The notes beneath the pieces were generated by a model. It ran no database searches, had not been told where the DNA came from, and saw only the letters and a list, made by a program, of their open reading frames with translations. A DNA stretch of 64,000 bases from an uncultured Chloroflexia bacterium. Its GTDB lineage: Bacteria; Chloroflexota; Limnocylindria; Limnocylindrales; CSP1-4. The stretch spans positions 100,212 to 164,211 of the forward strand of contig CAWFLS010000005.1 of NCBI GenBank assembly GCA_963816675.1, written 5' to 3'. Within the stretch, counting starts at the first letter, position 1; every line of letters starts with the position of its first letter. Below, piece after piece: positions 4,747 to 25,294 of this stretch. The position numbers were made by a program, and so were the translations under genes.

Positions 4747-4822
4747 CGCGAGTTCCTCCGTCGTCCTGCGGCGAGTATGAGGAACGCGGGAGGGCCGACT
4801 CACGAGATCGCCCGCCCGAGCG

Positions 4823-7750
4823 CTACCAGGCGGCCAGCGCCCAGATCCCCGGGTCGGATTCGGGAGCGCCTTCGCCGATCTCCGCAAAGAGCGCCACCGC
4901 GCGCTTCAGATGGGCCATCGACTCTTCGGTACGGCCGGCCTCGTGGCAGATGTCCGCCACGTGGTTCTCGACGGCCGCCTCGAGATGCCGGTCTCCGATT
5001 CGGCGACATGCCTCGACGGCGGCTACGGCAGTCCCGATCGCCTCGTCCACCGACCCAGCGGCGGCGAGCGTCAGGGCGAGCGCGGTCGACGCGGCTATGA
5101 ACGCGGTGGGGTCAGGATCGTCGACCGCGAGCGAGAGGCTGCGCTCCAGTGCTGACCGGGCGGCCGCGACATCTCCCCTGGCCTGCGCGACGAGGCCGAC
5201 AAGCCGTTCCCCCACCCCCGCCAGGTGTCGGTCCGACGCTCGCGCGGCGGCATCCAGCGCATCGCGGGCGGCTGCATCGGCGGCGTCGAGATCGCCGGTC
5301 CGCAGCGCGACGAGACTCCGCTCGATCTGCGCCTGTGCACGCAGTGCGTCGGTGGGCGAAGCCGCCGCCGCGACCCCGGGCCCCAGCGATGCAAGCGCCC
5401 ACTCGAGATGGCTCGCAGCGGCAGCGAGGTCACCGCGCCGACGGTGGACGCGGCCGAGCGCGACCTCGATCGCCGGCAGATCCTCGGGTGGGGCGAGGGC
5501 CGCCGCCGTCTCGAGTGCCCTGATCGCGGCTGGGTAATCGCCGAGGCGCGCCCGAAGCTGGCCGATCCGCTCGTGGATGTGCGCGGCAGCCGACGGGTCG
5601 AGCGCAAGTGCCGCCTCCAGGTTGTCGATCGCCTCGGCGTTGGCGAAGACGCTCTCCGCCCGGTCGGCTGCCTCGAGGTAGGCCGCGACCGCGGCCTGCG
5701 GCCGGCCCCCTTCCCGCTCGTGGGTGGCGATGAGCGCGAATCGACCGACCTCGTCGCGGGCCGCGCCAGAGGCGTCGACTCGGAGAGCGTCGGCGACCCG
5801 CCGGTGGAGCAGCCGGCGCCGGGCGAGGCTCGTCATCTCGTATGCCGTATCGCGCAACCGGCCATGGCCGAAGTCGTATCGGATCGCCGCCCCGGCCGCT
5901 CCGGAAAGCTCCCGGACGATCCCACGGCGCGCCAGCTCCTCGAGCGCGAGGACCGTCTCCTCCTCCGACCGGCCGCTCGCCGCGCGAACGGTTCCGAAGT
6001 CGAACGAGCGCCCGATCACCGCCGCCGCCGACAGGATCTGGGCCGTCGTCTCGGTGACCGACGCGATCCGGTCGCGAATGATCGCGTGGACGCCTCGGCG
6101 CCCTTCGGCATCGGCCACCTCGCCCGTCGCCAGCGCCTCGACGACGTGGAGCGGCAGGCCCTCGGACTCGTCGAGAAGGGTCGCAACCACGTCGTCGATA
6201 GTCGGGTCTCGGACCGCGCTCGGGCCGTGCCGCGTGGACGAGCTCGGTGACCGCAGCTCGATCGAGCCGCCCGAGTGATATCACTCTCGCGTCGCGGGTC
6301 CGCGCGAGATCGTCGGCGGTCGCGAGTGCGTCCGGCGCGAGGTCCTCGCGGCGCCACGCGAGCAGGAACAGGATCGGCCGGCTGGCGAGCCTGCGAGCCA
6401 GGTAGGCGGCGACCTCACGGGTCGGTGCATCGACCAGGTGGAAGTCGTCGATCGAGATCAGTCCCGGTATCGAGCCGCCCGCCAGCGCCGAGAGCGCGAC
6501 GGCGATCGCTTCGACCAGCCGAACGCGACCGCTCGCCGGATCAGGAAGGGAGGAACTCGCGACGCGCAGCGAAGGCGGCAGGTCGACGAGCCGGCCGATC
6601 TCGAGCCGGACACCGTCGCCGAGCTCGGCTAGGCGTTCGATGCCGCCAGGTAATGCCATACCGGCACGAAGCAGTTCGGCGATCGGGCCATAGGCGATGG
6701 TCGCCTCGCCTTCGTATCCCCGACTTCCGAGCACCGTCCCACCGCCATCCCGGATCGACGCAGCCACCGCCTCGAGGAATCGGGTCTTTCCGATCCCGGC
6801 CTCGCCCTCGACGATCGCCAGGCGCCCGTCCGGGCCGATGTCTCGCCATGCACTAACGACTGCGTGGAGCTCGAGGTCGCGCCCCACGAGAGGCAGGCGG
6901 CGACGCTCTCCCGGTGACGCCTCCGCAAGCACCACCGATCGAAGCTTTCGGCGGGACCCTCGACGTCGACCGGCACGTCTGGCGACGCGATCGGCAGAAT
7001 GTCCCGCCTTCGGCTCGAACGTCCCCTCCCTGACCGCGTCGTACAGGGCCGTCGTCTCGCGGAGGGGCGGGACGCCCAGCTCGCGGTCCAACAGGGCGAC
7101 AAGCGCGCGGTACTGGCCGATCGCACCAGCTCGATCGCCGGTCCGCCCGAGGATCTCGATCAACCGGCGCTGACCGCCCTCGTCGAGCGGATCGAGCTCT
7201 ACCCTTCGGCGCGAGGCCTCGACGGCGCCACTGGTGTCGCCCGCGCCGAGGCGAACACCCGCCAGTCGCTCGAGAAGCTCGCCGACCGTCCGCTCGACCC
7301 GGCTCGCCCGCGCCGCGTGCCAGTCGTCGAAGGCTGGACTGTCGCGAAGGCTGAACCCGGCGAGGAACGGACCGCGGGCGAGACCAGCCGCGGCTTCGAG
7401 ATCGGCGGGCTCGCTGGATGCCAGCAAGGCGCTCGACGTCCGCGAGGTCGACCCACGCGGCGTCCGGGTCCACCCCGACCCGCGTCCGGTCGATCCGGAG
7501 CCCGCGCTCCCCGACCGCTGTGCGCAGCGCGGAGAGCGTCCGTCGGAGCGCGCCCCGGGCGGCCTCGTCGTCGGCGTCGGGCCAGAACATGGCGGCCAGC
7601 TCGTCCCGGGCGAACGGTCGCCCCTCCGCCGCAACCAGGGCGACGATGGCGAGGGCCTTTCTGCGTGTCGACGACGACGCGACGCTCGCCAGCGAGGATC
7701 TCGAGCGGACCGAGCAGACGGATTCGGAGCGCGAGATCGGACGATGGCAT
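4823..7750 (-). CDS. SARP-family regulator: wHTH + BTAD + P-loop NTPase + TPR (several frameshifts)
   Basis: LRIRLLGPLEI, FWPDADDEAARGALRRTLSALR, RGPFLAGFSLRDSPAFDDW, ELDPLDEGGQRRLI, Walker A GEAGIGKT, and C-terminal TPR-like helices. A -10 TACCGT lies 6 nt upstream of the ATG. Confidence 0.88.
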
Positions 7751-7781
7751 CTCGTAACGGTACCGCCGCGCCCGCGAAGCC

Positions 7782-7814
7782 CGTAACGTTATCCGGACGA
7801 TGACCGCGCACGCT
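7782..7814 (+). promoter_or_regulatory. Conserved promoter copy 1: CGTAACG-ttat-CCGGACG-N9-CACGCT
   Basis: Same layout as 13995 and 14470. The -10-like hexamer is 6 nt before ATG 7821. Confidence 0.7.
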
Positions 7815-7820
7815 CCCGCG

Positions 7821-9013
7821 ATGGATGACCGAGCCATCCCGTCCACGCGCCGTCAGCGCCTGCTCCTCGCAGTCGTCGTCGGCGCGATCGCGATCCCCGG
7901 GCTGTACTCGCTGGTCAGCGCCCCCGACCTCGCCGGCCTCTTCGCGGTGCTCGCGTTCACGACCGTCGGGGCGCTGATCGTCTATCGACGTCCTGCCGAG
8001 CCCGTCGGGCGGCTGTGTCTCGGGATCGGCGTTGTGCAGCGCTGTCGGCCTGTGCCTCCGTTCGATCGCGATCGTCATCGATCGCCAGCCCGGCCCGCTG
8101 CCCGCCGTCCGCGGCCTTGGTCGCCGTCATCGCGGATCTACTGACATCGTTCGTGATCCTGCTCAGTGGCCCGCTGGTCGTGAGCCGCTTTCCGCACCGC
8201 GCGGCCGCAACGTGGCAGCGACGCCTGGAGGATGGCCTCGTCGCGGTCGTCGCCCTGGTCCTCATCGCCCAGGCGACTCGACCCGGTCCGCTCGACTTCG
8301 ACTTGGTCGAGGCCGTCGAGAACCCGATCCACCTCGACTGGATCCCTTCGTCTGGTTACGACGTGTTGCCGTTTGCGTTCACCGCGTATGGCGCCGCGTA
8401 TCTCGTCACGATCGTCGGGCTCGTCATTCGATACCGCAGCGGCGGAGCCGTCGTGCGGGCACAGATCCGATGGTTCGCCGCCGCAGCGGGTGTCACCCTC
8501 GGCCTGCTGATCCTGCTGTTCCTCACGACCGGCGACGAGGCCATCAGCAACGTTCTGTGGGTGGCGTGGATCGGATCGCTCCTCCTGCCGCCGATCGCGA
8601 TCGCCATCGCGATCCTCCGCTACCGCCTCTACGACATCGATCGAATCATCAGCAACACCATCGCGTACGGACTCGTGACCGTCGTCCTGTTCGCGATGTT
8701 CGTCGTCCTCAACCTGGCGCTCGTTTCGCAGGTGAGCCCGCTCGTGAACAACGAGGGCGTGGCGGTCGCCGCCTCGACTCTGCTCGTGGCGGCGATGTTC
8801 AACCCGCTGCGGACCCGAGTCCAGCGCGCCGTAGACCGGCGGTTCCATCGTGCCCGATACGACGCACAGCGGATGGTCGACGATTTCGCCGGTCGCTTGC
8901 GGGACGAGCTCGACCTCCCCACACTCACAGGCGAGCTGGCTACGGCGACGAGTCACGCCGTGCAACCGTCGATGGCGACCGTCTGGCTCCGAGCACGGGC
9001 GTCCGACCGATGA
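7821..9013 (+). CDS. Multi-TM sensor-like protein 1, ending in a partial GAF (frameshift near 8040)
   Basis: Multiple TM helices, then AILRYRLYDIDRIISNT...VDRRFHRARYDA...RLRDELDL...VWLRARASDR*. Confidence 0.8.
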
Positions 9014-9065
9014 TCGCGTACGCTCGGATTCGCGACGGACAGACACCAGGCCGGAGCGGCGCCCG

Positions 9066-10297
9066 ATGATTCGCCGGCTCGCCCGTCCGTTTGCGATCCT
9101 CGGCTGGGTGGCTGCGGTCGCAGGTGCCGTCGGCGCCGTCACGCTGCGCATCGTCGACCCCGTCCCGCAGCTTCCAAGCACGTTCGGATTCGGGCAGGCT
9201 GCGGTCGTTGGGTTCGGTGTCCTCGGGATCGCGTTCGCTTCGGTGGGCGCGGTCCTCGGGGTCCGCCGGCCGGGCAACATCATCGGCTGGCTGATGGTGG
9301 TCATCGGCGACGGGTACGCGGTCGGCGTGTTCTGGGCGGCTGTGACCTTCTCGCTTGCTTCCCATCCGTCGATGTCGCCGGTCAGCTGGCTCGACGTGCC
9401 GGATCGCGGGGTGGTTGACCGTCCTGTTCACAAGTCTTGGCGGCGCCGTCTTCGCTCTCGGGTTCGTATTCCCGACCGGGCGCGGCCAGACGCCGGCGTG
9501 GGATCGAGCGCTGAAGGTCGCCGTGGCCCTGACCCCATTGATGTTCCTCACGGTCTTCCTGATCCGACCGGGGCCTCTCCACGTCTTTCCCACGGTCGAC
9601 AACCCGTTCGGGGTGGGGTTTGATCTGCGACCGTGGCTGGGCGACAAGGTCTCCGAACGAGTCTCGGCGATGGCCGTGATCCTGCTGCCACTCCTCATCT
9701 GGTCCGTCGTTTCCCGGTACCGGTCGGCCGGAAAGGTCGAGCGCCAGCAGCTCAAGTGGTTCGGGCTGGCTATCGGGGTCACGATCGGATGCCTCGCGCT
9801 CGCGGGGGCCAGCGCGTCACTCATGGACGATCCGCCGGAGATCGGGCTCGCCCTGTTCGGTTTCGTCGGCGCGCTGCGTGCCGGTGGCCATCGGCATCGC
9901 GATCCTTCGGTATCACCTCTACGACCTCGATCGGGTCGTCAGCCGCACGGTTGCCTACAGCCTGGTGATCGCGCTCCTCGGCGTCGTGTTCGTCGCGGTC
10001 GTGTTCGGCCTGCAAGCGCTGCTCGCCCCAGTCACCTCGGGCCAGACCATCCCTGTCGCGGCGTCCACCCTCCTGGTCCTGACGTTGTTCCAGCCGATCT
10101 ACCGGCGTGTCAGGCGCGCCGTCGACCGACGCTTCGACCGAGCTCGCTACGACGCGGACCGGACGGCCGAGGCGTTCGCCGGGCGCCTTCGCGACGAGAC
10201 GAACCTCGCCGCGGTGACCTCAGACCTCACCCGGACGACCACGGCTTCGCTCTCGCCTGCCACCCTCGGGATCTGGCTGCGGGGGACCGGCCGATGA
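9066..10297 (+). CDS. Multi-TM sensor-like protein 2 (frameshifts near 9400 and 9877)
   Basis: MIRRLARPFAIL..., FPTGRG, ERQQLKWF, ILRYHLYDLDRVVSRT, VDRRFDRARYDA...IWLRGTGR*. Confidence 0.8.
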
Positions 10298-11533
10298 TGC
10301 GGAGGCTCGCCGGGCCGTTTGCGACCATCGGTTTGCTGGTCGCGATCCTCGCCGTCATCGGAACCATGGTGGTCCGGATCGTCGCCCCGGCGCCGTTCAT
10401 CACGATCTCCTTCGGATTCGGGCCCGCCGTCATGGTCGCGTTCCTCGTCATGGGCGTGACATGGGCGACGATCGGGGCATTTCTCGTCGTTCGGCGCCCG
10501 GACAACGCCATCGGCTGGTACGTCGTCGCAGTCGGCGTCGGCTACGCCCTGTCGATGCTGTTCCTGGCAGCTGACATTCGCGTTCGTCGACGAGGGGACC
10601 GCGGACGGGCTCAGGAGGGCCGAGCTCGCAGGATGGGCCACCGTGCTGTGTACCCAGGTCGGGGCATTCGCGTTCGTCATCGGGTTCGTGTTTCCAACGG
10701 GTCGCACGCAGGGTCCCGGCTGGGCACGATTCTTCAGGGTCTTTTGCGTGATGCTCCTGATCTTCAGCGCAATCGTCCTGTTCCAACCGGGCGCCCTGCA
10801 CCTCGCCCCGTCGCTCCGCAACCCATTCGGCATCGGGCCGGATCTGCGCGGCGGGCAACAGATGTCGCCCGTCCTGTCGCTGTTCGCGTTGATCGCCCTC
10901 CCGGCCGTTGTCATCTCCCTCACGACCCGGTACCGGAACGCGAAGCTGATCGAACGGCAGCAGCTGAAATGGTTGATGCTCAGCCTCCTCCTTTCCTGTG
11001 TCGGCCTTACCGCCCTCTTCTTCACGGCAGTGCTGACCAATGGACCCCAGGAGCAGCTCGGTCTGGCGCTCTACGCCGTCGCGCTGACCGGCGTCCCGAT
11101 CGCGATCGGCATCGCCATCCTCCGCCATGGCCTGTATGACATCGATCGGCTCATCAGCCGGACATTCGCGTACGGCGTCGTCACGGCCGTGCTGGCGTTG
11201 GTCTTCACCTCGCTGGTCCTGCTGCTCGGCGGTGCGCTCACCTCCGTCACGCGGGGGCTCATCCCGGTGGCACAGGGCGAGACGATCGCGGTGGCCGCCT
11301 CGACCGTCGTGGTCTTCCTCCTGTTCCAGCCAGTCCGAAAGCGTGTCCAGGGATCTGTCGACCGGCGGTTCGACCGGGCGCGCTTTGACGCCGAGGTGGT
11401 CGTGAGGGCCTTCGCCTCTCGCCTCCGCGACGACGTCGACCTTGCCGCAGTGAGCCGGGAGGTCGCGCATACAGCCACGAACGCCGTGCACCCGAGGAGC
11501 GTCACGATCTGGCTGCGCGGAACCCGGCGATGA
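10294..11533 (+). CDS. Multi-TM sensor-like protein 3 (frameshift near 10570)
   Basis: ATGA overlap with gene 2; FPTGR, ERQQLKWL, ILRHGLYDIDRLISRT, VDRRFDRARFDA...IWLRGTRR*. Confidence 0.8.
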
Positions 11534-12768
11534 CGCGACGACTGGCGCGCGCGTTCGCGGCGGCCGGCTGGCTCGTTGCGGTCGTGGCCGCCGTGGGCGC
11601 CGTCGCGCTCCGCGTCGCGGATCCCGTCCCAGTCGTCCCGAATAACCTCGGCTTCACGGACGCCGCGTTCGTCAGCTTCGAATTCCTGGGCCTGGCCTTT
11701 GCCTCGGTCGGTTCGCTGCTCGTCCTGCGCCGGCCGGCGAACGCCGTGGGGTGGGTCATGGTCCTGATCGGCGTCTCACACGCGCTCACCGGGGTGACCG
11801 GAGCCGTGCTGGCCTCGGCCGTGGCGGACGGCCCGGCGGGTGCCGCCACTGCGGGCGTCGCGGCGTGGCTTACCACGCTGTTCGCGTCGACCGCCATCCT
11901 CATCTTCGGACTGCCGCTCATCTTCCCGACCGGACGCGGCCAGACCCCGGCCTGGGATCGGTTCATCGTCGTCCTGGCGATCGGCGTGACGGTCGTCTAC
12001 GGGTGGCTCCTCCTCGTCCAGCCGGGACCGCTCATCATGTTCCCGTCGATCACCAACCCGGCCGGGTTCGGTCCGAACATCAGGGCCGCGCTCGGAGCAC
12101 AGGAACCTGCGCTCATCGCCTCGGCATCGATCGTCGTCCCTGTGCTCGCATGGTCGATGGTGTCGCGGTACCGGATGTCCGACGCTGTCGGGCGCCAGCA
12201 GATCAAGTGGTTCATGCTCGCAGCCTCGGCGGCGGTCGGAGCATTCAGCGTGACCGCGATCGCTACCGCGCTTACCGGCGAGGCACCGGAAGCCGGGCTG
12301 GTCGTGTTCGGATTCGCCGGCGCCCTAGTCCCCGTCGCCATCGGCATCGCCATCCTTCGCTACCGCCTCTACGACATCGACCGGATCATCAGCCGGACGC
12401 TGGCCTACGCGACCATCACCGGTGTCCTTGCCGCGGTCTTCACTGGCGTCATCCTCGTCGTCGGAGGCCTGCTGACGGCGCTGGCTCAGGGCGTCGTCCC
12501 GTCCGAGCGGGACCGGACGATCGCCGTCGCGGTCTCGACGCTCGTCGTGTTCGCGCTTTTCCAGCCGGTCCGCCGCGGCGTCCAGCGAGCCGTGGACCGC
12601 CGCTTCGACCGCGCGCGCTATGACGCCGATCGAACGGTCGACGCGTTCACCGCCCGCCTCCGCTACGACGCCGACCTCGCCGCCGTCAGCCGGGAGATCG
12701 TCGTCACGCGACCGTCGCGGTCCGGCCCGCCAGCGCGGTCATCTGGCTGCGGCGGGCGCGGACGATGA
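11530..12768 (+). CDS. Multi-TM sensor-like protein 4
   Basis: ATGA overlap; FPTGRG, RQQIKWF, ILRYRLYDIDRIISRT, VDRRFDRARYDA. The ...AVIWLR end is shifted by indels near 12705-12750. Confidence 0.8.
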   Translation: MTRRLARAFAAAGWLVAVVAAVGAVALRVADPVPVVPNNLGFTDAAFVSFEFLGLAFASVGSLLVLRRPANAVGWVMVLIGVSHALTGVTGAVLASAVADGPAGAATAGVAAWLTTLFASTAILIFGLPLIFPTGRGQTPAWDRFIVVLAIGVTVVYGWLLLVQPGPLIMFPSITNPAGFGPNIRAALGAQEPALIASASIVVPVLAWSMVSRYRMSDAVGRQQIKWFMLAASAAVGAFSVTAIATALTGEAPEAGLVVFGFAGALVPVAIGIAILRYRLYDIDRIISRTLAYATITGVLAAVFTGVILVVGGLLTALAQGVVPSERDRTIAVAVSTLVVFALFQPVRRGVQRAVDRRFDRARYDADRTVDAFTARLRYDADLAAVSREIVVTRPSRSGPPARSSGCGGRGR

Positions 12769-13999
12769 CCGTCGCACCGACGACGATGGCACCGACGCCG
12801 CCACGCCCCGGCGCGCTGTCGATCGCCATGATCGTGGCGTCCATCTCGGCTCTCGGTCGCGATCTCGCTGGCCATGGACCTCGTGCTGATCCGCTCGGCG
12901 ATCGCGGTGCCGCGCGAGATCCTCGTGAGCGCGGTCCTCTTCAACGTGACCTGCGTCGTGCAGTCGGTGGTCGGCGGCATCATCGAGTGGCAGCGACCGG
13001 GCCACACGATCGGTCGACTGCTGATGCTGAGCGGCCCGCTCTATGCGTTCCTTGGGGCAAGCTGGCTGACCTTCGGGACACTCGAGCCTCTCGTCGAGCC
13101 TGGGGTCTATCACTTCTTCTTCTGGGCCAGTTCGCTCCTCGCGTGGCCCGGCGTCGCGGTGATCGCCGGCTGGATCCCGTTGCTGTTCCCCACCGGGAGG
13201 CTCCCCGGGCCGCGGTGGCGGATCCCCGTGGCCATCCTCGTGGTCCTCTCCGGGATCACCCTGGTGGCGCTCGGCGGGCAGACCAGCATGTCCACCGACG
13301 GTCGTCGAGACGGCCGGCCAAGCGGCGCTGATCAACGCGATCGGGCTCGAACTGCTCGCGTTGCTGGTCATGGCGATCGCAGCGCTCGTCGTCCGCTACC
13401 GACGCGGCGACCGTGTCGAACGCCTCCAGATCCGCTGGTTCGCCGCGGCGGTCACGCTGTGCGGTGTCGGCTTCGTCGCCACGGTCATCCAGTTCGCGCT
13501 GCGCACCTCGACTGGACCGCTCCTCGGAGCGCTCGTGGCGTATGCCGGGATCCTCGCGATGCCGATCACGATCGGGATCGCCATCACCCGCTACCGCCTG
13601 TACGAGATCGACCGGCTCATCAGCCGCACCATCGGGTGGGCGCTCGTCACGGGCGTCCTGGTCGCTGTCTTCTCCGCCACCGTGCTGGGGCTCCAGGCCA
13701 TCCTCGCCGGCTTCGCGCAGGGTGGGACCTTCGCGGTCGCGGCATCCACCCTCGTCGCGTATGCCGTGTTCCAGCCGCTCCGTCGACGGGTCCAGCGGGC
13801 CGTCGACCGCCGCTTCGACCGCGCCCGCTACGACGGCGACCGAACGGCCTCCGCGTTCGCCGAGCGCCTGCAGGAGGAGGTCGACCTCGACGGCGTCGAA
13901 GCCGATATCGCCGGCACGGTGGACATGGCGCTCCACCCGAGTTCGTTCCGCGTCTGGCTGCGACCGTCACGACACACGACTGATCCGTCCATCCCGTAA
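12765..13999 (+). CDS. Multi-TM sensor-like protein 5 (frameshifted)
   Basis: LLFPTGRLPGPRWR, ERLQIRWF, ITRYRLYEIDRLISRT, VDRRFDRARYDG...VWLRPSRHTTDPSIP*. Confidence 0.8.
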
Positions 14000-14027
14000 C
14001 GATTCCCCGACGACCGCGCGGCAGGAT
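13995..14027 (+). promoter_or_regulatory. Conserved promoter copy 2: CGTAACG-attc-CCCGACG-N9-CAGGAT
   Basis: Direct match to the 7782 and 14470 copies with identical spacing. Confidence 0.72.
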
Positions 14028-14060
14028 GAGGTCGATCAGAACAAACAGGGAGGGACGAAG

Positions 14061-14465
14061 ATGAACAGGCGGACATTCATGAGTGTGGCGGTCGGCGTCT
14101 CGGTCGTCACCGGTCTCTTGAATCTGCTTGCGCCAGTGCAGATCTCCGATCTCTTCGGCGTCACCCTCGACGACACGGGTGCATCGCTGGCTCGGCTGCT
14201 CGGCGCCGCCTATCTCGGCTACGCGGCGACCGTTTGGTTCGCCAGGGACGTGCGTGACGCCGCCGCCCAGCGTGCGATCGGGTTGGGGAACTTCATGAGC
14301 TGGGGCCTCAGCCTGGTCGTGACCGTGATGGGCGTCGCCTCAGGCCTCGCCGGGACACTCGCGTGGTCGCTCGCTGCGACGGCCGTCGTCTTCTCGGCAG
14401 GATGGGGCTATTTCACGTTCATCGATCGTGCCGATGCCGCCGTCACGAACCCCGCGTCGACATGA
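14061..14465 (+). CDS. Small membrane protein (about 4 TM), function unknown
   Basis: RBS GGAGG upstream; MNRRTFMSVAVGVSVVTGLLNLLAP...ARLLGAAYLGYA...GWGYFTF. Confidence 0.75.
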   Translation: MNRRTFMSVAVGVSVVTGLLNLLAPVQISDLFGVTLDDTGASLARLLGAAYLGYAATVWFARDVRDAAAQRAIGLGNFMSWGLSLVVTVMGVASGLAGTLAWSLAATAVVFSAGWGYFTFIDRADAAVTNPAST

Positions 14466-14469
14466 TCCC

Positions 14470-14502
14470 CGTAACGATTCCCGGACGCTCCGCTGCGATG
14501 GT
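14470..14502 (+). promoter_or_regulatory. Conserved promoter copy 3: CGTAACG-attc-CCGGACG-N9-GATGGT
   Basis: Matches copies 1 and 2. The -10-like hexamer is 9 nt before ATG 14512. Confidence 0.72.
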
Positions 14503-14511
14503 GATCGCGAC

Positions 14512-16154
14512 ATGAGTGAACTGACCCGTCCGATCCGCCGCCTCTTCGGTCGTGGGAACGCGCCTGCGGACGTCGTCGTCCCGACCGAAGCCGAGCCCCG
14601 ACCGCGGCCGCTCCGGCGCCCGGACGCGCCGGCCGCCTCGATCGCGGTGGACATCGCCGAATCGGACCCGCTTCTCGCCTACCTCCAGACTGCGCCCGGG
14701 CCGGTCGACCTCACCCGCCTCGAGCTCGACTCGCCGGCGGTCCGCGACCTGCGCGCGGCCGGTGTCGCGCTCGTCGTCCCGCTCGTCTCGCAGGGCGAGC
14801 TGATCGGCACGCTCAACCTCGGCCCACGCCTCTCCGAGCAGGACTACTCGACCGACGACCGCCGCCTCCTGACGACCCTCGCCGCGCAGGCCGCGCCGGC
14901 CATCCGCGTCGCCCAGCTCGTCCGCGAGCAGGCCCACGAGGCGGCCGAGCGCGAGCGGCTCGACCAGGAGATGCGGGTCGCGACGCTCATCCAGCAGCAG
15001 TTCCTGCCGCGCGAGCTGCCGAAGCTGCCGCAGTGGCAGATCGCCGCGTACTACGGCCCGGCGCGGGCGGTCGGTGGCGACTTCTACGACTTCATCGAGA
15101 TGCACGACGGGCGGATCGGCATCGCCGTCGGCGACGTCACCGACAAGGGCGTCCCGGCGGCGCTGGTCATGGCCCGGACCCACTCGATCCTGCGCGCCGA
15201 GGCCAGGCCGGAGCGATTCGCCGGGCGAGATCCTCGCCCGCGCCAACGCGCTGCTCGAGCCCGGAGATGCCGGCCCGCATGTTCGTGACCTGCCTGTTCG
15301 CGATCCTCGATCCGGCGACCGGGCGGATCGTCATGGCCAACGCCGGCCACAACCTGCCCGTACATCCGGACCGACGACGGGGTCGTCGAGCTGCGCGCGA
15401 CCGGGATGCCGCTCGGGCTGATGCCGGGCATCCGCTACGAGGAGACCGAGGGGGTCATCGCCCCGGGCAGCAACGTCCTGCTCTACTCGGACGGGCTGGT
15501 CGAGGCCCACGACCCGAGCCAGCAGATGTACGGCTTCCCGCGGCTTGCGCGAGGAGATGGCCGTCGACGACGCCGGGAGCGAGCTGCTCGACCGGCTGCT
15601 CGACACGCTCCACCGGTTCACCGGGCCCGACTGGGAGCAGGAGGACGACATCACGCTCGTCACCCTCCGCCGGGCGTCCGGCGTCGCCGAAGGCGGCGCG
15701 AGCCGCTGGCCGGACCCTCACGCTCGTCACCGCCTTCTCGGTCCCCGGCGAAGAGGGCAACGAGCGAATGGCGATGGACCGCGTGGCGGCCGCCGTCGCC
15801 GATCTCGGCCTCCCGCCGGCACGCCTCGAACGGCTCAAGACGGCGGTCAGCGAGGCGACCATGAACGCCATCGAGTACGGCAGCCAGGGCCGCCCCGACG
15901 TCCCGGTCGACCTCGACGTCGAGACGACCGCCGACGCGATCGTCGTCCGCATCACCGACCGCGCGCTGTCCGGCGCGGTGCCCGACGACGCCGAGGCGCC
16001 CGACATCGAGCTCAAGCTCGCCGGCGAGCAGAAGCCGCGCGGCTGGGGGCTCTTCCTGATCAAGAACATGGTGGATTCGATGGACGTGACCAGCGACGGG
16101 TCGACCCAGACGGTGACCCTGACGATGGCACGCGAGGAGCGCAGCGATGGATGA
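14512..16154 (+). CDS. Partial GAF + SpoIIE/PP2C (RsbU-like) phosphatase + RsbW-like HATPase (several frameshifts)
   Basis: GAF end VVPLVSQGELIGTLNLG...DDRRLLTTLAAQAAPAIRVAQL; PP2C motifs AVGGDFYD, GDVTDKGVPAAL, ANAGHN, LYSDGLVEA, QEDDITLV; kinase motifs AVSEATMNAIEYG and RGWGLFLIKNMVD. Confidence 0.88.
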
Positions 16155-16479
16155 CCGACAGTTCGGCGCAGACATCACCGAGGTCCCGGACGAGGTCCGC
16201 GTCCGACTCAGCGGCGACCTCAACGCCCGCGCCGACGAGACCCTCGCGGACGCCTACGCGCAGGTCGCGGCCCTCGGCCCGCACCGGGTCAGCCTCGACT
16301 TCGGGCGGGTCGGCTACATCAACAGCACGGGCATCGCGCTCGTCGTCCGGCTGCTGGCCGACGCGCGACGCGACGGCCGGACGGTCCGGGCGATCGGCCT
16401 GACCGAGCACTACCGGGAGATCTTCCGGATCACCCGGCTGTCGGACTTCATGGAGATCGTGGAAGGAGACGCCGCATGA
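16147..16479 (+). CDS. STAS-domain anti-sigma factor antagonist 1
   Basis: RLSGDLN...LDFGRVGYINSTGIALVV...IFRITRL, with the phosphorylatable Ser motif. Confidence 0.9.
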   Translation: MDDRQFGADITEVPDEVRVRLSGDLNARADETLADAYAQVAALGPHRVSLDFGRVGYINSTGIALVVRLLADARRDGRTVRAIGLTEHYREIFRITRLSDFMEIVEGDAA

Positions 16480-16824
16480 CCGCGACCGTCATCGAGCTCG
16501 ACCAGGAGGGGCCGGCGTCGATCCTGCGCATCGAGGGCGACATCACCTCCGCGAGCGAGGCCGACCTGATGGCCGCCTACGGGCTCGCGATCGCGAACGG
16601 CGCGACGGCGGTGATCCTCGACTTCTCGAAGCTCGAGTACATGAACAGCGGTGGCATCGGGCTGCTCGTGACGCTCCTCGTCCGTGCCCAGCGCGGCCGG
16701 CGGACGCCTGGTGGCGACCGGCCTGTCCGAGCACTACCGCCAGATCTTCTCGCTGACCCGCCTCGACGAGGCGATCGAGATCCACGACGACGAAGCGGCG
16801 GCCGTCGCCGCCGCCACCGCCTGA
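16476..16824 (+). CDS. STAS-domain anti-sigma factor antagonist 2 (frameshift near 16697)
   Basis: LRIEGDIT...LDFSKLEYMNSGGIGLLV, continuing GLSEHYRQIFSLTRLDEAIEIHDDEAAAVAAATA* in the shifted frame. Confidence 0.88.
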
Positions 16825-16853
16825 CCAGCGATCCGGAGGACGAGGAGGCCGAG

Positions 16854-17631
16854 ATGACGAGACCACGATCGACCCGCCGACCGAGAGGCACCGGCCAACC
16901 GCGACGCCGCGAACTGGGCCCAGCCGGTCGATCGGCTGTCGGGCGCGGGCGCTGTCAGGCGCCAAGGACGACGCCGTGACCGGCAAGCGCGTGTCGGGTC
17001 CGCTCCAGGGCTTCGGCCAGCTGTGGCAGAAGTCGTTCACGGTCCGGCTCGAGGGCGTCGACACGACACCCGAGGCGGTCATCGCGACCTGGAAGGCGCA
17101 CTTCGCCGAGTTCTGGCCGAAGGGCCAGCGGTTCTACGCGCCGTTGTCGGGGATCAAGCCCGGCGAGGTCGGCCTGCTCGAGATCCAGCCGGTGCCCGGT
17201 GCGCCGGTCAGGCTGTCGACCGGCGTCCTCGTCCTGTACGCCGATGACGAGTCGTTCACGTTCATGACCCCCGAGGGCCATACCCTCTCGGCGTGGATCA
17301 CCTTCTCGGCCCGTCGCGATGGCGACGTGGTCGTGGCGTCGGCGGAGGCGCTCGAGCGGCCGGCCGACCCGTTCGACGAGATCGCCTACAAGCTCGGCGG
17401 CAACCGCCAGAACAACAAGTTCTGGGAGGCGACGCTGCGCAACCTCGCGCATCATGGTCGGCGTTCCCGACGCCGGTCGTCGAGGTCCAGGTCGCCTGCA
17501 TCGACGGCAACCGGCAGTGGCGCTACTGGCGGAACGTCCGCAACAGCGCGACGATCCGATCCGCCCGCCGGACCTTGACGGCACCCGTCCGCAAGCTCGA
17601 CCCGTCGGGGCTGAGGCTACGGTCCCCGTGA
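16854..17631 (+). CDS. Hypothetical soluble protein in the STAS operon (frameshifted)
   Basis: RBS GAGGAGG; GPLQGFGQLWQK...STGVLVLYADDESFTFMTPEGH...CIDGNRQWRYWRNVRNSA, with strong coding bias. Confidence 0.72.
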
Positions 17632-18829
17632 GCGGCCGTGACTCTCACCCCGACCCGACGCGCTCGGCATTCGGAACGTATGCGCCGATCGTCCTCGGTT
17701 CGCTCGTCGTCGTCGGCGTGGTCCTGAACCTGTCCAATCTGCCGGGGCTGCTCGCGTTCCTCCCGTACTCGATCGTCGGCGCCGTGCTGGTGGCTCGACG
17801 CCCTCACCACGTCGATCGGCTGGCTGCTCCTGCTGATGGCCGTCGCGTTCAGCCTGCTCGGCCGTGGGCCCGAGCTGGCACGCTTGCTCATCGGGACGGA
17901 ACTGGCGCCGTGGCTGCCCGCGCTGGCCTGGATCGGGATGATGGCGGCTATCGCGATGTTCGGTCTCATGGCTCTGATCGCGGCCGTCTTCCCGACGGGC
18001 AGGCTCCCGCAGGGACGAGCGGGTGGCATGACCAAGGCGGCCCTCGTGGCCATCGCGGCGATCGGCCTGCTGCAGGCCGTGGACCCGGTCTTCGTGACGC
18101 GGCTTCCGGACGGGACGACCATCGAGCTCCTCAATCCGATCGGGATCGCCCCTGGCTGGTCCGGGTGGTCGTTGTTGGATGGACCGGCCTACCTGGTCGT
18201 GGTCGCTGGAATCCTGGTGTGCCTCGTCGGCCTCGTGCATCGCTTCCGTCGTGCCGAGATGATCGAGCGGGAGCAGGACAAGTGGCTGCTTGCGTCGTTG
18301 GCGCTCATCGTCGTGACCGTCGTGTTCGGCTACGTGGGAGGCGCACTCTTTGATCCGACCGGAAGTTGGATCTGGATCCCGGCGACCGTCGCCCTTCCGT
18401 TGCCACCGGTCGCGATCGGCATCGCGATCATGCGCTACCACCTGTATGACATCGACCGGATCATCAGCAGGACGATCGCGTACGCCGGTCTGACACTGGT
18501 GCTGTTCGCGGTCTTCACGGCCGTGAATCTCGTTCTGCAGTCGATCTTCGAGTCGTCTCGTCGGCGGAGGTTCGGTGGCGGTCGCTGCCTCGACCCTCGC
18601 GGTCGCGGCATCGTTCAACCCGCTTCGCGTCCGCGGCCAGCGAGTCGTCGACCGGCGCTTCAATCGCGCCCGACAGGACGCCGACGAGACGACGGGTCGC
18701 TTCGCGCGGCGCCTCGGCGATCAGCTCGATCTGGACACGATCGGCACCGAGTTGACGAGCGCAGCCGTCGGTGCCGTCGAGCCGATGACCGCGACCTTCT
18801 GGCTGCGCGGGCGAGTCGTCCGCCCGTGA
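17628..18829 (+). CDS. Multi-TM sensor-like protein 6 (frameshifted)
   Basis: GTGA overlap; FPTGRLP, EREQDKWL, IMRYHLYDIDRIISRT, VDRRFNRARQDA...FWLRGRVVRP*. Confidence 0.8.
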
Positions 18830-18845
18830 CGTTGCCCGAGGGGCG

Positions 18846-20286
18846 ATGAGGACCGAAGCGACGGCCGAGCTCGACGCGATCGTGGTCGGGGCGGGACCCA
18901 ACGGCCTCGCCGCGGCGATCACCCTCGCCCGTGCCGGCCGCTCGGTCCGTGTCTACGAGGCTGCGGACACGGCCGGTGGCGGGACGCGGACCGCCGAGCT
19001 GACGCTTCCCGGCTTTCGTCACGACGTCTGCTCGACGATCCTGCCGCTGACCGTCGCCTCGCCGTTCTTCCAGACGATCGACCTCGCCGCACGCGGCGTC
19101 GAGCTCGTCCATCCCGGACGCGCCGATCGCCCATCCGCTCGACGGCGGCCGGGCGGTCGTGCTCGAGCGATCTGTCGCGGCGACGGCGGCCGGTCTCGGT
19201 GGCGCTGACGGGCGAGCGTGGCGACGGCTCTTCGGGCCACTCGTGCGGGACGGGGAGAAGCTGGCCTCGGAGCTCCTCCGGCCTGTCGTCCATGTGCCGA
19301 GGCATCCCTTGGCACTGGCTCGTTTCGGGCTGCCGGCGCTTTGGTCTGCGGAGGGCCTGGCCCGCCACCGATTCGACGGGACGAGGCTCGTGCGTTGTTC
19401 GCCGGGATCTCCGCTCACGCGATGCTCGCGCTGGATCGGCCGTTGACCGCGGCGTTCGGGCTCGTGCTGGGAACGTACGCCCACGCGGTCGGCTGGCCGA
19501 TGGTCCGTGGCGGTGCCGGCGTCCTCGCCGATGCGCTCGTGGCGGAGCTGAGGGCCGCCGGCGGCGAGCTCGTGACGGGCCATCGGGTGGCGACGCTCAG
19601 CGACCTGCCGCCGGCCCGGGCCGTGCTGTTCGATGTCACGCCGCGCCAGCTACTCGACATCGCCGGCGATGCTCTCTCCCCGCGGGTCCGTCGCCGAGCG
19701 GAGCAGTTTCGTTACGGGCCGGGTGTCTTCAAGGTCGATTGGGCGCTCGACGGCGCCGTGCCGTGGGCAGCGGACGGTCCTCGGCGAGCCGCGACTGTCC
19801 ACCTCGGCGGCACGCTCGAGGAGATCGCCGCCGCGGAGTCCGATGTGGCCGCCGACCGCATCCCGGAGCGGCCGTACGTCCTTTTCGTCCAGTACCAGCC
19901 CTGGGATCCCTCGCGCGCGCCCGACGGTAAGGCTGTTGCCTGGGCGTACTGCCACGTGCCGGCCGGCTCTCCCATCGACATGACCGACCGTATCGAGGCC
20001 CAGGTCGAACGCTTCGCACCTGGCTTCCGTGACCGCATCCTCGCCCGCGCCACGCATGGGCCGGCGAGCGATGGAGGCGTACGACGCGAACTATGTCGGC
20101 GGCGACATCAACGGCGGGATCCAGGACATCCGTCAGCTGGTGTTCCGGCCGTGGCCGTCCCGGGATCCATACCGCGTTGGCGTCGGTCTGTACCTGTGCT
20201 CGTCGTCCACCCCGCCCGGTGGCGGCGTCCACGGGATGAGCGGGATGCTGGCGGCGCGATCCGCTCTTCGCCACGATCTGTCGTAG
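18846..20286 (+). CDS. Phytoene dehydrogenase-like NAD(P)/FAD oxidoreductase (frameshifted)
   Basis: DAIVVGAGPNGLAAA, GGGTRTAELTLPGFRHDVCS, FKVDWALDG, and YLCSSSTPPGGGVHGMSG. Confidence 0.88.
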
Positions 20287-20774
20287 AGGCGCGTCCCGAA
20301 TCACCCGTGGTTCGGCGACGACGGGCTAGGCCCCTTGGCGATCGCGCCGCGTGTCGCACCTTGGCAACTCGCCATCAGGGGCTTTCGATAGACGTTTTGC
20401 TGCGTCCGCGCAGTGTTGTCCCGGTATTTGCAAGGAACAGATAAGTGGGGCGTTTGCCGTCGCCTGCTAGTATCCCCGGACTGTGATCGGGTCTTGTCCC
20501 CGATCTCTTTCGTCTTCAACCCGCCCCGACACTCCCCCAAAGTCTCGGGGTGCGGCCGAGGACTTGCCCAACCGCATGCAGGGTTCGTGCGATCGAAGCG
20601 GCTGGAGGCAAGCCAGCCATCACCTCTCGCATCGACATCGCCGAGTGGTACCAAAGAGTCTCGGGCGCGAGACCACAGGCGTGCTGCGTCGCATCGAACA
20701 GCAGCGATGATGACGACTCTGGTCACACCCTCCGTGCCATGGATAGGTGGCCCACCATTCCAAGGGAACTTGCC

Positions 20775-23700
20775 ATGCCCCAGTTGCCCACGCCTCGCGG
20801 TTCAAGAAGGACGCGCCTCGCCGCCGTCGTCCTGACATCACTATTGGGTTTCGCGCTGCTACCGGTGTCCGTCTCCGCCGGGGCGATCAACACGGCAGAG
20901 CTGGACAACGGCCAGTGTGTCAGCAACCTACAGATCGGCTCGGACAAGACATCGAGTGCGAGCAACACGCCGTGGTTCCTGGTAACCGCGAACGGTGCCG
21001 GAACGCTGTACCAGCTGTTCGTGGACGGTGTCGGGATCGGCTCCTTCGAAGCGAACCAGTTTGCCCGCGTTTGCGGACAGCAGACCAAGCCGCTGACCGA
21101 TGGCCGGCACACCCTGACGGGGAGTGAGATCCGCTACAACCTCGGATCGATCACCCCGTTCACGTTCTCCGTCGACACAGTGGCGCCGGCGGTGCCATCG
21201 AGCCCCAGCCTCGCCGCATTCAGCGACACCGGCGTCCAGGGTGACAACACGACCTCGACCACGACGCCGTTCTTCTCTGGCACCGCAGAGCCGGGCGTTC
21301 AGATCTTCGTCTACGGGAATGGCAACTTCCTGGGCGGCGCGGTCGCCGACGCAGGCGCCTGGTCGGCCAGGTCGAGCACGCTGGCAAACGGACCGTACAC
21401 GATCATGGCACGGTCGAAGGACCAGGCCGGCAACATGAGCGCGCCCTCGGGGGCGATCAACGTGGTCATCGACACCGTAGCGCCAGCGACTCCTCCGGCA
21501 CCGACCCTTGACCCGGCCTCGGACTCCGCCCCCGTCGGCGACAACACGACAACAGTCACGACACCGACGGTCACAGGGGTCGGAGCAGAAGCCTCTTCGA
21601 CCATCGCGGTATACGTCGATGGCGCGAAGGTCGGCACCACGACATCGAACGCCACCGGCTCTTGGCAGAAGGCTCTGCCCTTCCAGGCGATCGGTACGCA
21701 CAGTGTCACGGCTACGGCCGCTGATCTCGCCGCAAACGCGAGCGGGAATTCCGCCGCCTTGTCTCTGACGATCGGAACCGCGGCCGCGACCGTGCCCGGC
21801 GCCCCGACCCTCATTTCGGCCACGGCCGGCAACGGCCAGGTGTCACTCGCGTGGTCCGCGCCGTCCAACGGCGGTGCCGCGATCACGAGCTACCGGGCGA
21901 CCTCGTCGAGCGGGCTCGCCTGCACCACCGCCGGCCTCGGCTGCACCATCACCGGCCTGACCAACGGCACGAGCTATTCGTTCACGGTCACCGCCACCAA
22001 CAGCGTCGGGACCGGCCCTGCCAGCAACGGGATGTCGGCGACTCCGGTCGCTCCCGCGACCGTGCCCGGCGCACCGACCCTCAACTCGGCCACCGCCGGC
22101 AACGGCGCAGGTGAGCCTGGCCTGGTCGGCGCCCGCCAGCAACGGCGGCGCCGCGATCACGAGCTATCGGGCGACCGCGTCCAACGGGCTCTCCTGCACG
22201 ACCGCCGGCCTCGGCTGCACGATCAACGGCCTGACCAACGGCACGACCTACTCGTTCACCGTCACCGCCACCAACAGCGTCGGCACGGGCCTGCCGTCGA
22301 ACGCCATGTCGGCCACCCCGGTGGCCGCCGCGACCGTCCCCGGCTCCCCGACCCTCAACTCGGCCACTGCCGGCAACGGCCAGGTCAGCCTGACCTGGTC
22401 GGCGCCCGCCAGCAACGGCGGCGCCGCGATCACCAGCTATCGGGCGACGGCCTCCAACGGGCTCTCCTGCACCACCGCCGGCCTCGGCTGCACGATCACC
22501 GGCCTGACCAACGGGATCGCCTACTCGTTCACCGTCACCGCCACCAACAGCGTCGGGACCGGCCTGCCAGCAATGCGCTGTCGGCCACCCCGGTCACTCC
22601 CGCGACGGTGCCAGGCGCCCCGGCCCTCAACTCGGCCAGCGCCGGCAGCGGCGCCGTGACCCTTGCCTGGTCGGCCCCCGCCAGCAACGGCGGCGCCGCG
22701 ATCACGGGCTACACGGTCACCGCGAACAATGGCGCGTCATGCTTGACCGCCGGCCTCAGCTGCACCATCAACGGCCTGACCAACGGCACGACCTACTCGT
22801 TCACCGTCACCGCCACCAACAGCGTCGGCACGGGCCTGCCGTCGAACGCCATGTCGGCCACCCCGGTGGCCGCCGCGACCGTCCCCGGCTCCCCGACCCT
22901 CAACTCGGCCACTGCCGGCAACGGCCAGGTCAGCCTGACCTGGTCGGCGCCCGCCAGCAACGGCGGCGCCGCGATCACCAGCTACCGGGCGACGGCATCC
23001 AACGGGCTCTCCTGCACCACCGCCGGGCTCGGCTGCACGATCACCGGCCTGACCAACGGGATCGCCTACTCGTTCACGCGTCACCGCCACCAACAGCGTC
23101 GGGACCGGCTCTGCCAGCAATGCGCTGTCGGCCACCCCGGTCGCTCCCGCGACGGTGCCAGGCGCCCCGACCCTCAACTCGGCCAGCGCCGGCAGCGGCG
23201 CCGTGACCCTTGCCTGGTCGGCCCCCGCCAGCAACGGCGGCGCCGCGATCACGGCTACACGGTCACCGCGAACAATGGCGCGTCATGCTTGACCGCCGGC
23301 CTCAGCTGCACCATCAACGGCCTGACCAACGGGACGACCTACTCGTTCACCGTCACCGCCACCAACAGCGTCGGCACGGGCCTGCCGTCGAACGCCATGT
23401 CGGCCACCCCGGTGGCCGCCGCGACCGTCCCCGGCTCCCCGACCCTCAACTCGGCCACTGCCGGCAACGGCCAGGTCAGCCTGACCTGGTCGGCGCCCGC
23501 CAGCAACGGCGGCGCCGCGATCACCAGCTATACCGTGACGGTCAGCAACGGAGCCACGTGCCTCACCGGCGGGCTCGCATGCACGATCACCGGCCTGACG
23601 AACGGGACGACCTACTCCTTCACCGTGAGGGCGAGCAACAGCGTCGGAACAGGCTCTGCCAGCAATGCGCTGTCAGCCACCCCGGTCGCTCCCGCCACCC

Positions 23701-25115: not shown

Positions 25116-25209
25116 GGTCATCGAGTCCGATCAACGTCGGAGGACGGCACGCATTCGGGGTGCGTGCCGTCTTCGATTCCGGCCATGCTCACGCGGGTAC
25201 GACCGATCG

Positions 25210-25247
25210 AAAAACGAAGAGCCGGCTCACAAGGAGCCGGCTCTTCG
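25210..25247 (-). terminator. Intrinsic terminator between convergent surface-protein genes
   Basis: CGAAGAGCCGGCTC-acaag-GAGCCGGCTCTTCG is a perfect 14-bp stem. The AAAAA on its left gives a U-tract on the minus strand. Confidence 0.8.
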
Positions 25248-25294
25248 ACGGGTCGCCGTGCGACCTCGTACTCGTCGAACGAACGGATCGTTCG

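Follow-up and report, generated by a model that had tools for sequence, protein, structure and literature searches.

Introduction

[quoted passage not shown] At the afsS promoter, as set out in passages of PMC10936776, the large SARP AfsR binds two 11-bp repeats that extend from -40 to -19, are centred at -29.5 and overlap the -35 region; it contacts the first 8 bp of each repeat, at a promoter whose -10 (CACTGT) is weak and whose -35 is poor. The same passages give a general SARP rule that puts 8 bp between the 3' repeat and the -10. Here, we describe three copies of a two-heptamer promoter element (boxes S1, S2 and S3), located beside a divergently transcribed gene for a large SARP-like regulator in a stretch of 64,000 nucleotides (the window; GenBank assembly GCA_963816675.1, contig CAWFLS010000005.1, positions 100,212 to 164,211 of the forward strand) from an uncultured Chloroflexota bacterium. 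Judging from sequence and from the analogy with AfsR, we put the probability that the three boxes are SARP-type operator/promoter elements used by this AfsR-like regulator at roughly 0.8. Almost nothing is known about transcription control in uncultured soil Chloroflexota, and a full-text literature search, judged by titles and abstracts, found no paper on a SARP regulon in this phylum.

Like the regulator encoded in the window, AfsR of Streptomyces coelicolor is a large SARP in which the SARP domain is followed by a P-loop NTPase (NOD) and TPRs. In both systems, two 11-bp units lie over the -35 region (from -40 to -19 in the afs box and from about -39 to -18 here), conservation within a unit is confined to its first 8-9 bp, a weak -10 begins with C or G, and a usable -35 is lacking. 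The two differ in phylum (Actinomycetota versus Chloroflexota), with a SARP-domain identity of about 21%, and in the repeat itself, CGTT(T/C)ATCGNN at the afs box as quoted in a part of PMC10972967 versus CGTAACG here. The targets here are signaling genes rather than afsS or antibiotic clusters, and their transcripts look leaderless. The small SARPs ActII-ORF4, DnrI and RedD likewise use heptamer direct repeats with 4-nt spacers and an 11-bp period over the -35 region, the 3' repeat lying about 8 bp from the -10 (passages of PMC10936776 and PMC10972967). These proteins of about 300 aa are encoded inside biosynthetic clusters and often use three repeats, whereas the present system has two repeats (three in one distant genome, G209), a STAND-type protein of about 945 aa, a regulon free of biosynthetic genes and a 9-nt gap instead of 8 nt. 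EmbR of Mycobacterium tuberculosis, the best sequence-level match among solved structures, shares the DNA-binding and BTAD domains but ends in an FHA domain where the protein here has an NTPase and TPRs. By geometry and protein family this is a SARP system and no new mechanism; it differs from known SARP systems in the phylum, the repeat sequence, the signaling regulon and the apparently leaderless promoters.

Results

Three two-heptamer boxes precede weak -10 hexamers at a fixed distance

An initial annotation of the window, made from its letters and open reading frames (ORFs), had proposed boxes at 7782, 13995 and 14470, each followed after exactly 9 nt by a NANNNT hexamer. All three are present at these positions on the forward strand, the gap from the second heptamer to the hexamer is exactly 9 nt in every case, and the starts of the two heptamers are 11 bp apart at S1, S2 and S3 (Table 1). 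The ATG that was said to follow the hexamer after 6 nt does so at S1; at S3, the distance is 9 nt. The full pattern, CGTAACG-N4-CCSGACG-9 nt-NANNNT, has three matches in the window and none in any of 100 dinucleotide-preserving shuffles. Across both strands of the 22 contigs that make up the 4.27-Mb assembly, there are 171 copies of CGTAACG, but the two-heptamer pattern has only three occurrences, all on one strand and inside 6.7 kb.

If the S1 transcript starts at the S1 ATG, which its hexamer precedes by only 6 nt and which would make this transcript leaderless, the first heptamer of S1 occupies positions -39 to -33. The predicted 11-bp periodicity just upstream of the -10 is borne out, with the box at about -39 to -18 and a sigma-70-type -10 at a fixed distance. 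A consensus scan of window positions 7600-20600 found no sigma-70-type promoter of two hexamers. At S2, a Shine-Dalgarno-like GGGAGGG lies between the -10 and the ATG of the small membrane protein gene. The first heptamer of S2 (CG-TAA-CG) contains the stop codon of the fifth sensor gene (TAA, 13997-13999), and only 5 nt separate the stop of the small membrane protein gene from the start of S3, so that the three transcription units are packed without spacers. Read-through from S1 and S2 is possible.

Table 1. Features of the window around the boxes, in order of position.
Feature	Coordinates	Strand	Remarks
AfsR-like large SARP regulator gene	4823..7750	-	SARP DNA-binding domain and BTAD, AAA_16 P-loop NTPase, TPR
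Element CGTAACGGTAC	7753..7763	+	bears a fourth CGTAACG heptamer; candidate autoregulatory site
Box S1, two heptamers	7782..7799	+	CGTAACG-TTAT-CCGGACG, CGTAACGTTATCCGGACG; CGTAACG at 7782-7788, CCGGACG at 7793-7799
-10 hexamer CACGCT, promoter S1	7809..7814	+	ATG 7821 after 6 nt
Five tandem sensor-module paralogs	7821..13999	+	approximate ends 9013, 10297, 11533, ~12768 and 13999; frames broken by assembly indels
Box S2	13995..14012	+	CGTAACG-ATTC-CCCGACG, CGTAACGATTCCCCGACG; 41.7 bits, best matrix score genome-wide
-10 hexamer CAGGAT, promoter S2	14022..14027	+	ATG 14061 after a leader of ~30 nt with GGGAGGG
Small membrane protein gene, 134 aa	14061..14465	+	Shine-Dalgarno-like GGGAGGG upstream
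Box S3	14470..14487	+	CGTAACG-ATTC-CCGGACG, CGTAACGATTCCCGGACG
-10 hexamer GATGGT, promoter S3	14497..14502	+	ATG 14512 after 9 nt
GAF - PP2C (SpoIIE) phosphatase - HATPase_c_2 (anti-sigma-kinase-like) fusion	14512..16151	+	Pfam matches in three frames; frameshifted
Rest of putative S3 operon	16123..20444	+	two STAS (anti-sigma-antagonist-like) genes, one unassigned ORF, sixth sensor paralog, FAD/NAD-binding amine-oxidase-like gene
Terminator-like hairpin with T-rich tail	20485..20505	+	likely end of S3 operon; consensus scan found 2 sites versus 3.6 expected in shuffles

Box, -10 and start codon are conserved in related loci

Searching with a profile of the regulator, we collected 80 related loci from Chloroflexota, mostly from metagenome-assembled genomes (MAGs) of Candidatus Limnocylindrales/Limnocylindria and a few labelled otherwise. 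A box adjoins the regulator gene on the opposite strand in 63 of them, and every one of the 136 boxes with enough flanking sequence stands opposite to the regulator strand and points away from it, with none on the regulator strand. Two box positions that the search pattern had left free are conserved (A or T at position 7 in 128/136, T at position 8 in 133/136). A -10-like hexamer follows at a fixed 9 nt without positional wobble: across the 136 sites, it has A at position 2 in 126 and T at position 6 in 123, an A next to this final T in 90, a G before that A in 85, and C or G as its first base in 118. An ORF of at least 70 aa follows at 120 sites and is lacking at a further 19; in 94 of the 120, the first start codon to open such an ORF is 39-43 nt away from the beginning of the box, which puts it 6-10 nt past the -10. 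All 11 same-genus loci found with the regulator show the same series of an intergenic box, 8-10 nt (mostly 9), NANNNT, 6-8 nt and ATG, and in relatives the two repeats are identical at up to 6 of 7 positions (CGTAACG/CGGAACG). The 18-mer of S3 recurs unchanged upstream of the phosphatase gene in many relatives. The phosphatase frame begins at the box-proximal ATG with conserved first residues in the window and in four relatives (G010, G012, G008 and G006); its conserved N-terminus, MSELTRP in the window and in the G010 orthologue, starts at ATG 14512. These distances suggest that the boxes drive leaderless or near-leaderless promoters.

The letters of the box also resemble promoters of extracytoplasmic function (ECF) sigma factors, an alternative that the initial annotation had itself raised: a sigma factor of the sigD/ECF40 kind, known from Corynebacterium and Mycobacterium, would read GTAAC(G) as the -35 and GAT as the -10, and the neighboring BTAD protein would not recognize the box at all. 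Corynebacterium glutamicum sigD promoters combine a -35 GTAAC(A/G) with a -10 GAT, as in GTAAC-15 nt-CTCGAT (a passage of PMC6338062), and M. tuberculosis sigD promoters have been reported with a -35 GTAACGct (as quoted in a part of PMC13537577). The boxes indeed contain GTAACG, many of the -10s end in GAT by the base frequencies given above, and the host genome has 42 Sigma70_r2 matches. The spacing, however, does not fit, since the distance from GTAAC to GAT is constant at 24 nt here versus 18 nt in the sigD example (PMC6338062, same passage), and nothing is conserved 16-18 nt after GTAAC in the 136-site compendium. What would be the spacer holds the conserved second heptamer, in other families even a second CGTAACG, and the best-conserved base of the hexamer is the A at position 2. 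An A at this position is typical of sigma-70-type -10 elements. Sigma factor genes are not linked to the boxes either: with a region-2 hidden Markov model built from the 42 sigma matches of the host, which recovered its positive control, a sigma-like ORF was found within about 10 kb in only 4 of the 80 loci and none in the window, and no anti-sigma gene accompanies the box. In the host genome, the nearest sigma gene is about 17 kb from S1, and all matrix hits are more than 14 kb away from any sigma gene. On the 24-nt spacing, the conserved second heptamer and the missing linked sigma gene, we regard recognition by an ECF sigma factor as scarcely credible, and SARP-type operators as the far better description of the boxes.

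Two complete boxes 37 bp apart are found between the regulator and the first sensor gene of locus L047 (G008:C110, ~11235-11272) and also of L005; NANNNT follows at 9 nt behind the proximal box only. A palindrome, AACGTT, contained in CGTAACGTT, was considered as the site of a dimeric repressor and dropped, as boxes of the S2/S3 type read CGTAACGAT and all 136 boxes share one orientation.

The divergent regulator is AfsR-like by domains and predicted fold

A protein with winged-helix, BTAD, NTPase and TPR regions had been assigned to 4823-7750, and its domains stand up to profile, fold and Pfam comparison; the gene itself is split. As assembled, it consists of four frame pieces (7729-7658, 7662-7420, 7460-6210 and 6208-4826; tblastn with the intact G010 orthologue), while intact orthologues of about 945-990 aa carry Pfam BTAD, AAA_16 and TPR. 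BTAD (PF03704) is matched with an E-value of 1.9e-17 in the window and of 1.5e-15 and 1.2e-14 in orthologues, AAA_16 with 1.5e-13 to 4.3e-22 in the window and orthologues, together with TPR_12 and further TPR models. The NB-ARC model is absent from the listed Pfam matches of the regulator, and the label NOD is used by analogy. The first 300 residues of ten orthologues gave a profile that aligns, from position 6 onward, to residues 8-279 of M. tuberculosis EmbR (2FEZ) with an E-value of 1.5e-9. For an AlphaFold2 model of the N-terminal region (mean predicted local distance difference test score 76.2), the best matches in the PDB are the AfsR SARP domains 8K60_J and 8K60_I of the S. coelicolor initiation complex (E-values 1.7e-10 and 2.3e-9), at a template modeling (TM) score of 0.70-0.72 by target and a sequence identity in the SARP domain of only about 21%. 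EmbR (2FF4, 2FEZ) and then AfsR 8HVR come next, and the AfsR and EmbR matches span about 250 residues that include the winged-helix DNA-binding domain. On these sequence profiles and this predicted fold, the regulator is an AfsR-like large SARP. Its host is a Limnocylindrales (Chloroflexota) MAG and no actinobacterium, an origin that the initial annotation had not foreseen, and the protein falls outside the Actinomycetota to which the review cited above (PMC10972967) confines SARPs; actinobacterial occurrence is a taxonomic habit of SARPs and no structural criterion.

The box tracks the regulator across genomes

In 61 genomes of the genus, a strict pattern (a box with W-T, 9 nt, NANNNT) has 69 matches in 29 genomes and none in the reversed control. 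The regulator (E ≤1e-40) is encoded in 28 of the 61. The box is present in 25 of these 28 versus 4 of the 33 genomes without the regulator, and 29 genomes have neither. The three genomes with the regulator only (G011, G033 and G052) bear variant boxes, at 54 nt, 3.7 kb and 47 nt, respectively, two of which directly adjoin the regulator gene; those with the box only are G014, G031, G055 and G069. Across 401 Chloroflexota genomes, the strict pattern yields 28 matches in 18 genomes, including the unpublished G411, on which nothing else in this study draws, versus 3 control matches. Twenty genomes of the same family that belong to other genera have no match. This is an accessory module of patchy distribution, present in about half of the sampled genus genomes and in several other Chloroflexota families.

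A wider comparison covered 12 stretches of DNA, taken from 10 genomes that belong to other families or classes. In 7 of the 12, a box is directly followed by sensor or phosphatase homologues. Three genomes have a SARP gene in the same stretch: in G450 and G362 it is divergent and adjoins a box, in G100 it is a few kb off. These boxes are followed by a canonical TACNNT -10, and their second heptamer reads (C/G)GTAACG in G201, G374, G209 and G304, which results in perfect 11-bp repeats; in G201, G209 and G304, the match is 7/7 (CGTAACG-N4-CGTAACG). The perfect repeats settle that the element is a tandem direct repeat.

Some of these distant loci have arrangements of their own. In L138 (G145:C52, 3531-18136), one box, about ten or more tandem sensor paralogs, a second box and the phosphatase gene follow each other. 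Three CGTAACG repeats at 11 bp occur in L134 (G209:C1, 7829-7875) and two in L135 (G304:C5, 8708); in these genomes of lower G+C content, the repeats are followed after 9 nt by a TACACT or TACAAT -10, and no SARP, sensor or phosphatase gene was found within about 8 kb of either site. The G209 site lies upstream of a 250-aa ORF without a Pfam family, whose neighbors carry SWIM, DUF5691, MoxR-AAA and DUF5682.

The same co-occurrence bears on whether the boxes might instead be bound by another tandem winged-helix factor, for instance an unlinked response regulator of the OmpR/PhoB type, with the SARP merely co-located or sharing the site. In the pho boxes of PhoB and PhoP, tandem 11-bp direct repeats replace the -35, and winged-helix domains are bound to them head-to-tail. 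This is the geometry of the boxes described here, which alone cannot tell the two kinds of factor apart. The DNA-binding domains of SARPs are of the OmpR type. Unlike PhoB and PhoP, the regulator here has no receiver domain, and carries BTAD, NTPase and TPR regions instead. At afsS, AfsR and PhoP bind overlapping repeats (a passage of PMC10972967), and in four of the distant genomes (G145, G427, G201 and G374) no SARP gene was found in the stretch fetched beside the box. On the other hand, no response-regulator domain was detected among the ORFs of window positions 1-26000, the box directly adjoins the SARP gene in most of the related loci (63/80), it follows this gene through the genus (25/28 versus 4/33), and the SARP gene's own promoter bears an extra heptamer at a fixed 29 bp, as described in the next section. 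Binding by such another factor is thus an unlikely explanation, and the adjacent SARP remains the preferred candidate for recognizing the boxes.

A fourth heptamer lies on the promoter of the regulator

A further conserved CGTAACG, which the initial annotation had not anticipated, lies on the core promoter of the regulator itself. On the reverse strand, the element CGTAACGGTAC reads TACCGT (7762-7757), a -10-like hexamer located 6 nt before the regulator ATG (7750-7748). Across the 80 related loci, CGTAACGGTAC is found at most 70 nt upstream in 62 of 128 strict boxes, and in 52 of these 62 cases it lies exactly 29 nt upstream of an S1-type box. In 12 loci of the genus, the ATG or GTG of the regulator follows 3-5 nt beyond the element; on the reverse strand, 6-7 nt separate TACCGT from this start codon. 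Because only 6-7 nt lie between this hexamer and the start codon, the regulator transcript is probably leaderless as well, and the position of the fourth heptamer over the -10 and start of the regulator gene suggests autoregulation.

This extra heptamer resembles an occluding site, and the two-heptamer boxes overlap the polymerase-binding region; both would suit a SARP with a repressing or dual role, one that occupies the -35 region of otherwise active promoters. The box promoters, however, have no recognizable -35, the scan of 7600-20600 revealed no sigma-70-like two-hexamer promoter, and the -10s are weak, with C or G in place of T at the first position, which is the signature of activator dependence. 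Characterized SARPs with the same geometry are described as activators in passages of PMC10936776 and PMC10972967. Repression at S1, S2 and S3 is therefore quite improbable, and activation of the three promoters is the reading that we retain.

Sensor modules and a phosphatase operon form the predicted regulon

In relatives, 120 box-proximal ORFs comprise 58 sensor modules, 45 GAF-SpoIIE(PP2C)-HATPase_c_2 fusions, 3 small membrane proteins of the same family as the gene behind S2, and 14 singletons, many of which are probably frame noise. A position weight matrix for which only the 80 foreign loci were used was run on the host genome, where the three window sites reach 41.7, 37.9 and 37.1 bits. 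Outside the window, it finds two more sites, C13:638102(-) at 30.7 bits and C4:37399(+) at 25.7 bits; nothing in the reversed-sequence control exceeds 12 bits. At each of these two sites, NAnnAT follows after 9 nt, and a solitary sensor paralog lies downstream. By tblastn, the host has eight sensor paralogs, each of them behind a box: the S1 array accounts for five, the S3 operon for one, and the other two are the solitary ones. The scan of the genome and its relatives that had been proposed earlier thus returns the three known and two sensor-preceding sites in the host and a conserved motif in relatives, and the suggested link between sensors and phosphatase output is upheld and extends to two unlinked sensor paralogs elsewhere in the genome.

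The sensor module has about 400 aa, is a multi-pass membrane protein and lacks a kinase domain. No Pfam family scores above threshold save for one weak HisKA_7TM match in an orthologue, and in comparisons with Atlas models the module aligns to the N-terminal parts of HisKA_3 histidine kinases and a guanylate-cyclase family (TM score 0.56-0.73 by query, a lead only). Most of its look-alikes in the Atlas belong to Actinomycetota. Its C-terminal motifs RYRLYDIDR, DRRFDRARYD and WLR occur five times in the array, in agreement with tblastn. Intact orthologues of the GAF-PP2C fusion have 583-677 aa. Downstream of S3, the C-terminal part of the sixth sensor paralog was located at ~18391-18811 by tblastn, and between 14512 and 20485 the matrix and consensus scans detected neither a box nor a terminator-like site; from this arrangement, we infer a single S3 operon.

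Discussion

Proposed mechanism

In the model that we infer from sequence patterns, which covers binding, activation over repression, the transcript starts and autoregulation, two regulator protomers, in analogy to AfsR at the afsS promoter, would sit side by side on the two 11-bp units (CGTAACGWT.. and SSGRACG....) that span about -39 to -18. The bound protomers would substitute for the missing -35 and contact sigma region 4 and the core enzyme, such that RNA polymerase with a sigma-70-type sigma factor is recruited to the weak -10, (C/G)AnnAT, at its fixed distance of 9 nt downstream. The NTPase and TPR regions would gate the activity of the regulator, and the resulting transcripts would be leaderless or nearly so. 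The predicted regulon would comprise every one of the kinase-less multi-pass sensor modules, the small membrane protein, and the GAF-PP2C-anti-sigma-kinase fusion that, with the STAS proteins, constitutes a partner-switching module. Through the fourth CGTAACG, 29 bp upstream and over its own -10 and start, the regulator would probably control its own synthesis.

Several observations weigh against the assignment of the boxes to a SARP. The two heptamers of the window boxes agree at just 4-5 of 7 positions (C...ACG), which makes for a weak direct repeat there, and the gap between the second heptamer and the -10 is 9 nt versus the quoted 8, although it counts as 8 if the repeat core is taken as 8 bp and is within 1 bp of the rule as worded in the passages of PMC10936776. 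The related loci are not independent, so that the counts overstate the statistical weight and are to be read as descriptive, with no formal test. In 17 of the 80 loci, the search pattern detected no adjacent box, some contigs ending near the gene, and in G145 no SARP gene was found in the 1.9 kb fetched beyond the first box. On the N-terminus of the regulator, Pfam Trans_reg_C reaches about 14 bits at a cut-off of 26.2; because it stays below threshold, it was replaced by the profile and fold comparisons. Of the three frameshifts in the regulator gene, one junction is bridged by an independent contig, and those near 7660 and 7440 are not bridged.

The box as such, with more than 130 conserved sites, is a high-confidence element. 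If recognized as proposed, it provides an AfsR-like protein of uncultured soil Chloroflexota with a DNA motif, a promoter architecture and a regulon. SARP-type "sigma adaptation" could then be tested directly in a phylum other than Actinomycetota, and Limnocylindrales would gain a working -10 consensus together with indications of leaderless genes. It also connects an uncharacterized family of stand-alone membrane sensors to a PP2C partner-switching module. A bolder reading, which we offer tentatively and consider rather doubtful, is that the STAND-type SARP is the master switch of a self-contained, widespread but patchy Chloroflexota signaling cassette, where it would gate the entire sensor family, eight of eight in the host and the run of about ten or more in G145, together with the PP2C/anti-sigma-kinase/STAS module into which these sensors presumably feed, and limit itself via the lone heptamer over its own leaderless start. 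If true, this would be a new SARP wiring outside actinobacteria, in which the capacity for signal perception is controlled rather than secondary metabolism.

Assembly quality and other features of the window

The host genome has a G+C content of 69% and is rated 68% complete. Single-nucleotide indels are frequent at window positions 4800-16200, where the regulator is found in four frame pieces and the phosphatase in three. We compared positions 4800-8200 with short-read contigs from four other public runs, which lack one base at 6218 (one run), 8036 (three runs) and 8105 (two runs). When base 6218 is omitted, as in a near-identical short-read contig, the regulator frame is open from 7460 to 4826, and omission of bases 8036 and 8105 gives a first sensor gene of 396 aa that ends at the expected stop. 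Because leaving out bases absent from the short-read contigs restores the frames, the frameshifts look like consensus errors of the assembly. Homopolymers were rejected as the cause of the indels, as no G or C run in the window exceeds 6 and no indel falls in a long homopolymer. Among the public runs listed as matching window positions 4800-8200 (matching shares all ≤0.13), there is no RNA run.

Beyond the S3 operon, a very large protein that looks secreted and has many fn3 and Big_13 domains is encoded at positions 20487-26413, with an open frame of 1190 aa; fn3 matches in other frames of this region suggest further indels or tandem genes. On the other side of the regulator, three features occupy positions 395-2791: an ORF with a PIN domain (395-985), a class-V aminotransferase (933-2582) and a SnoaL-like domain whose frame overlaps (1262-2791). 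The overlap reflects two genes, or else a fusion that an indel has broken.

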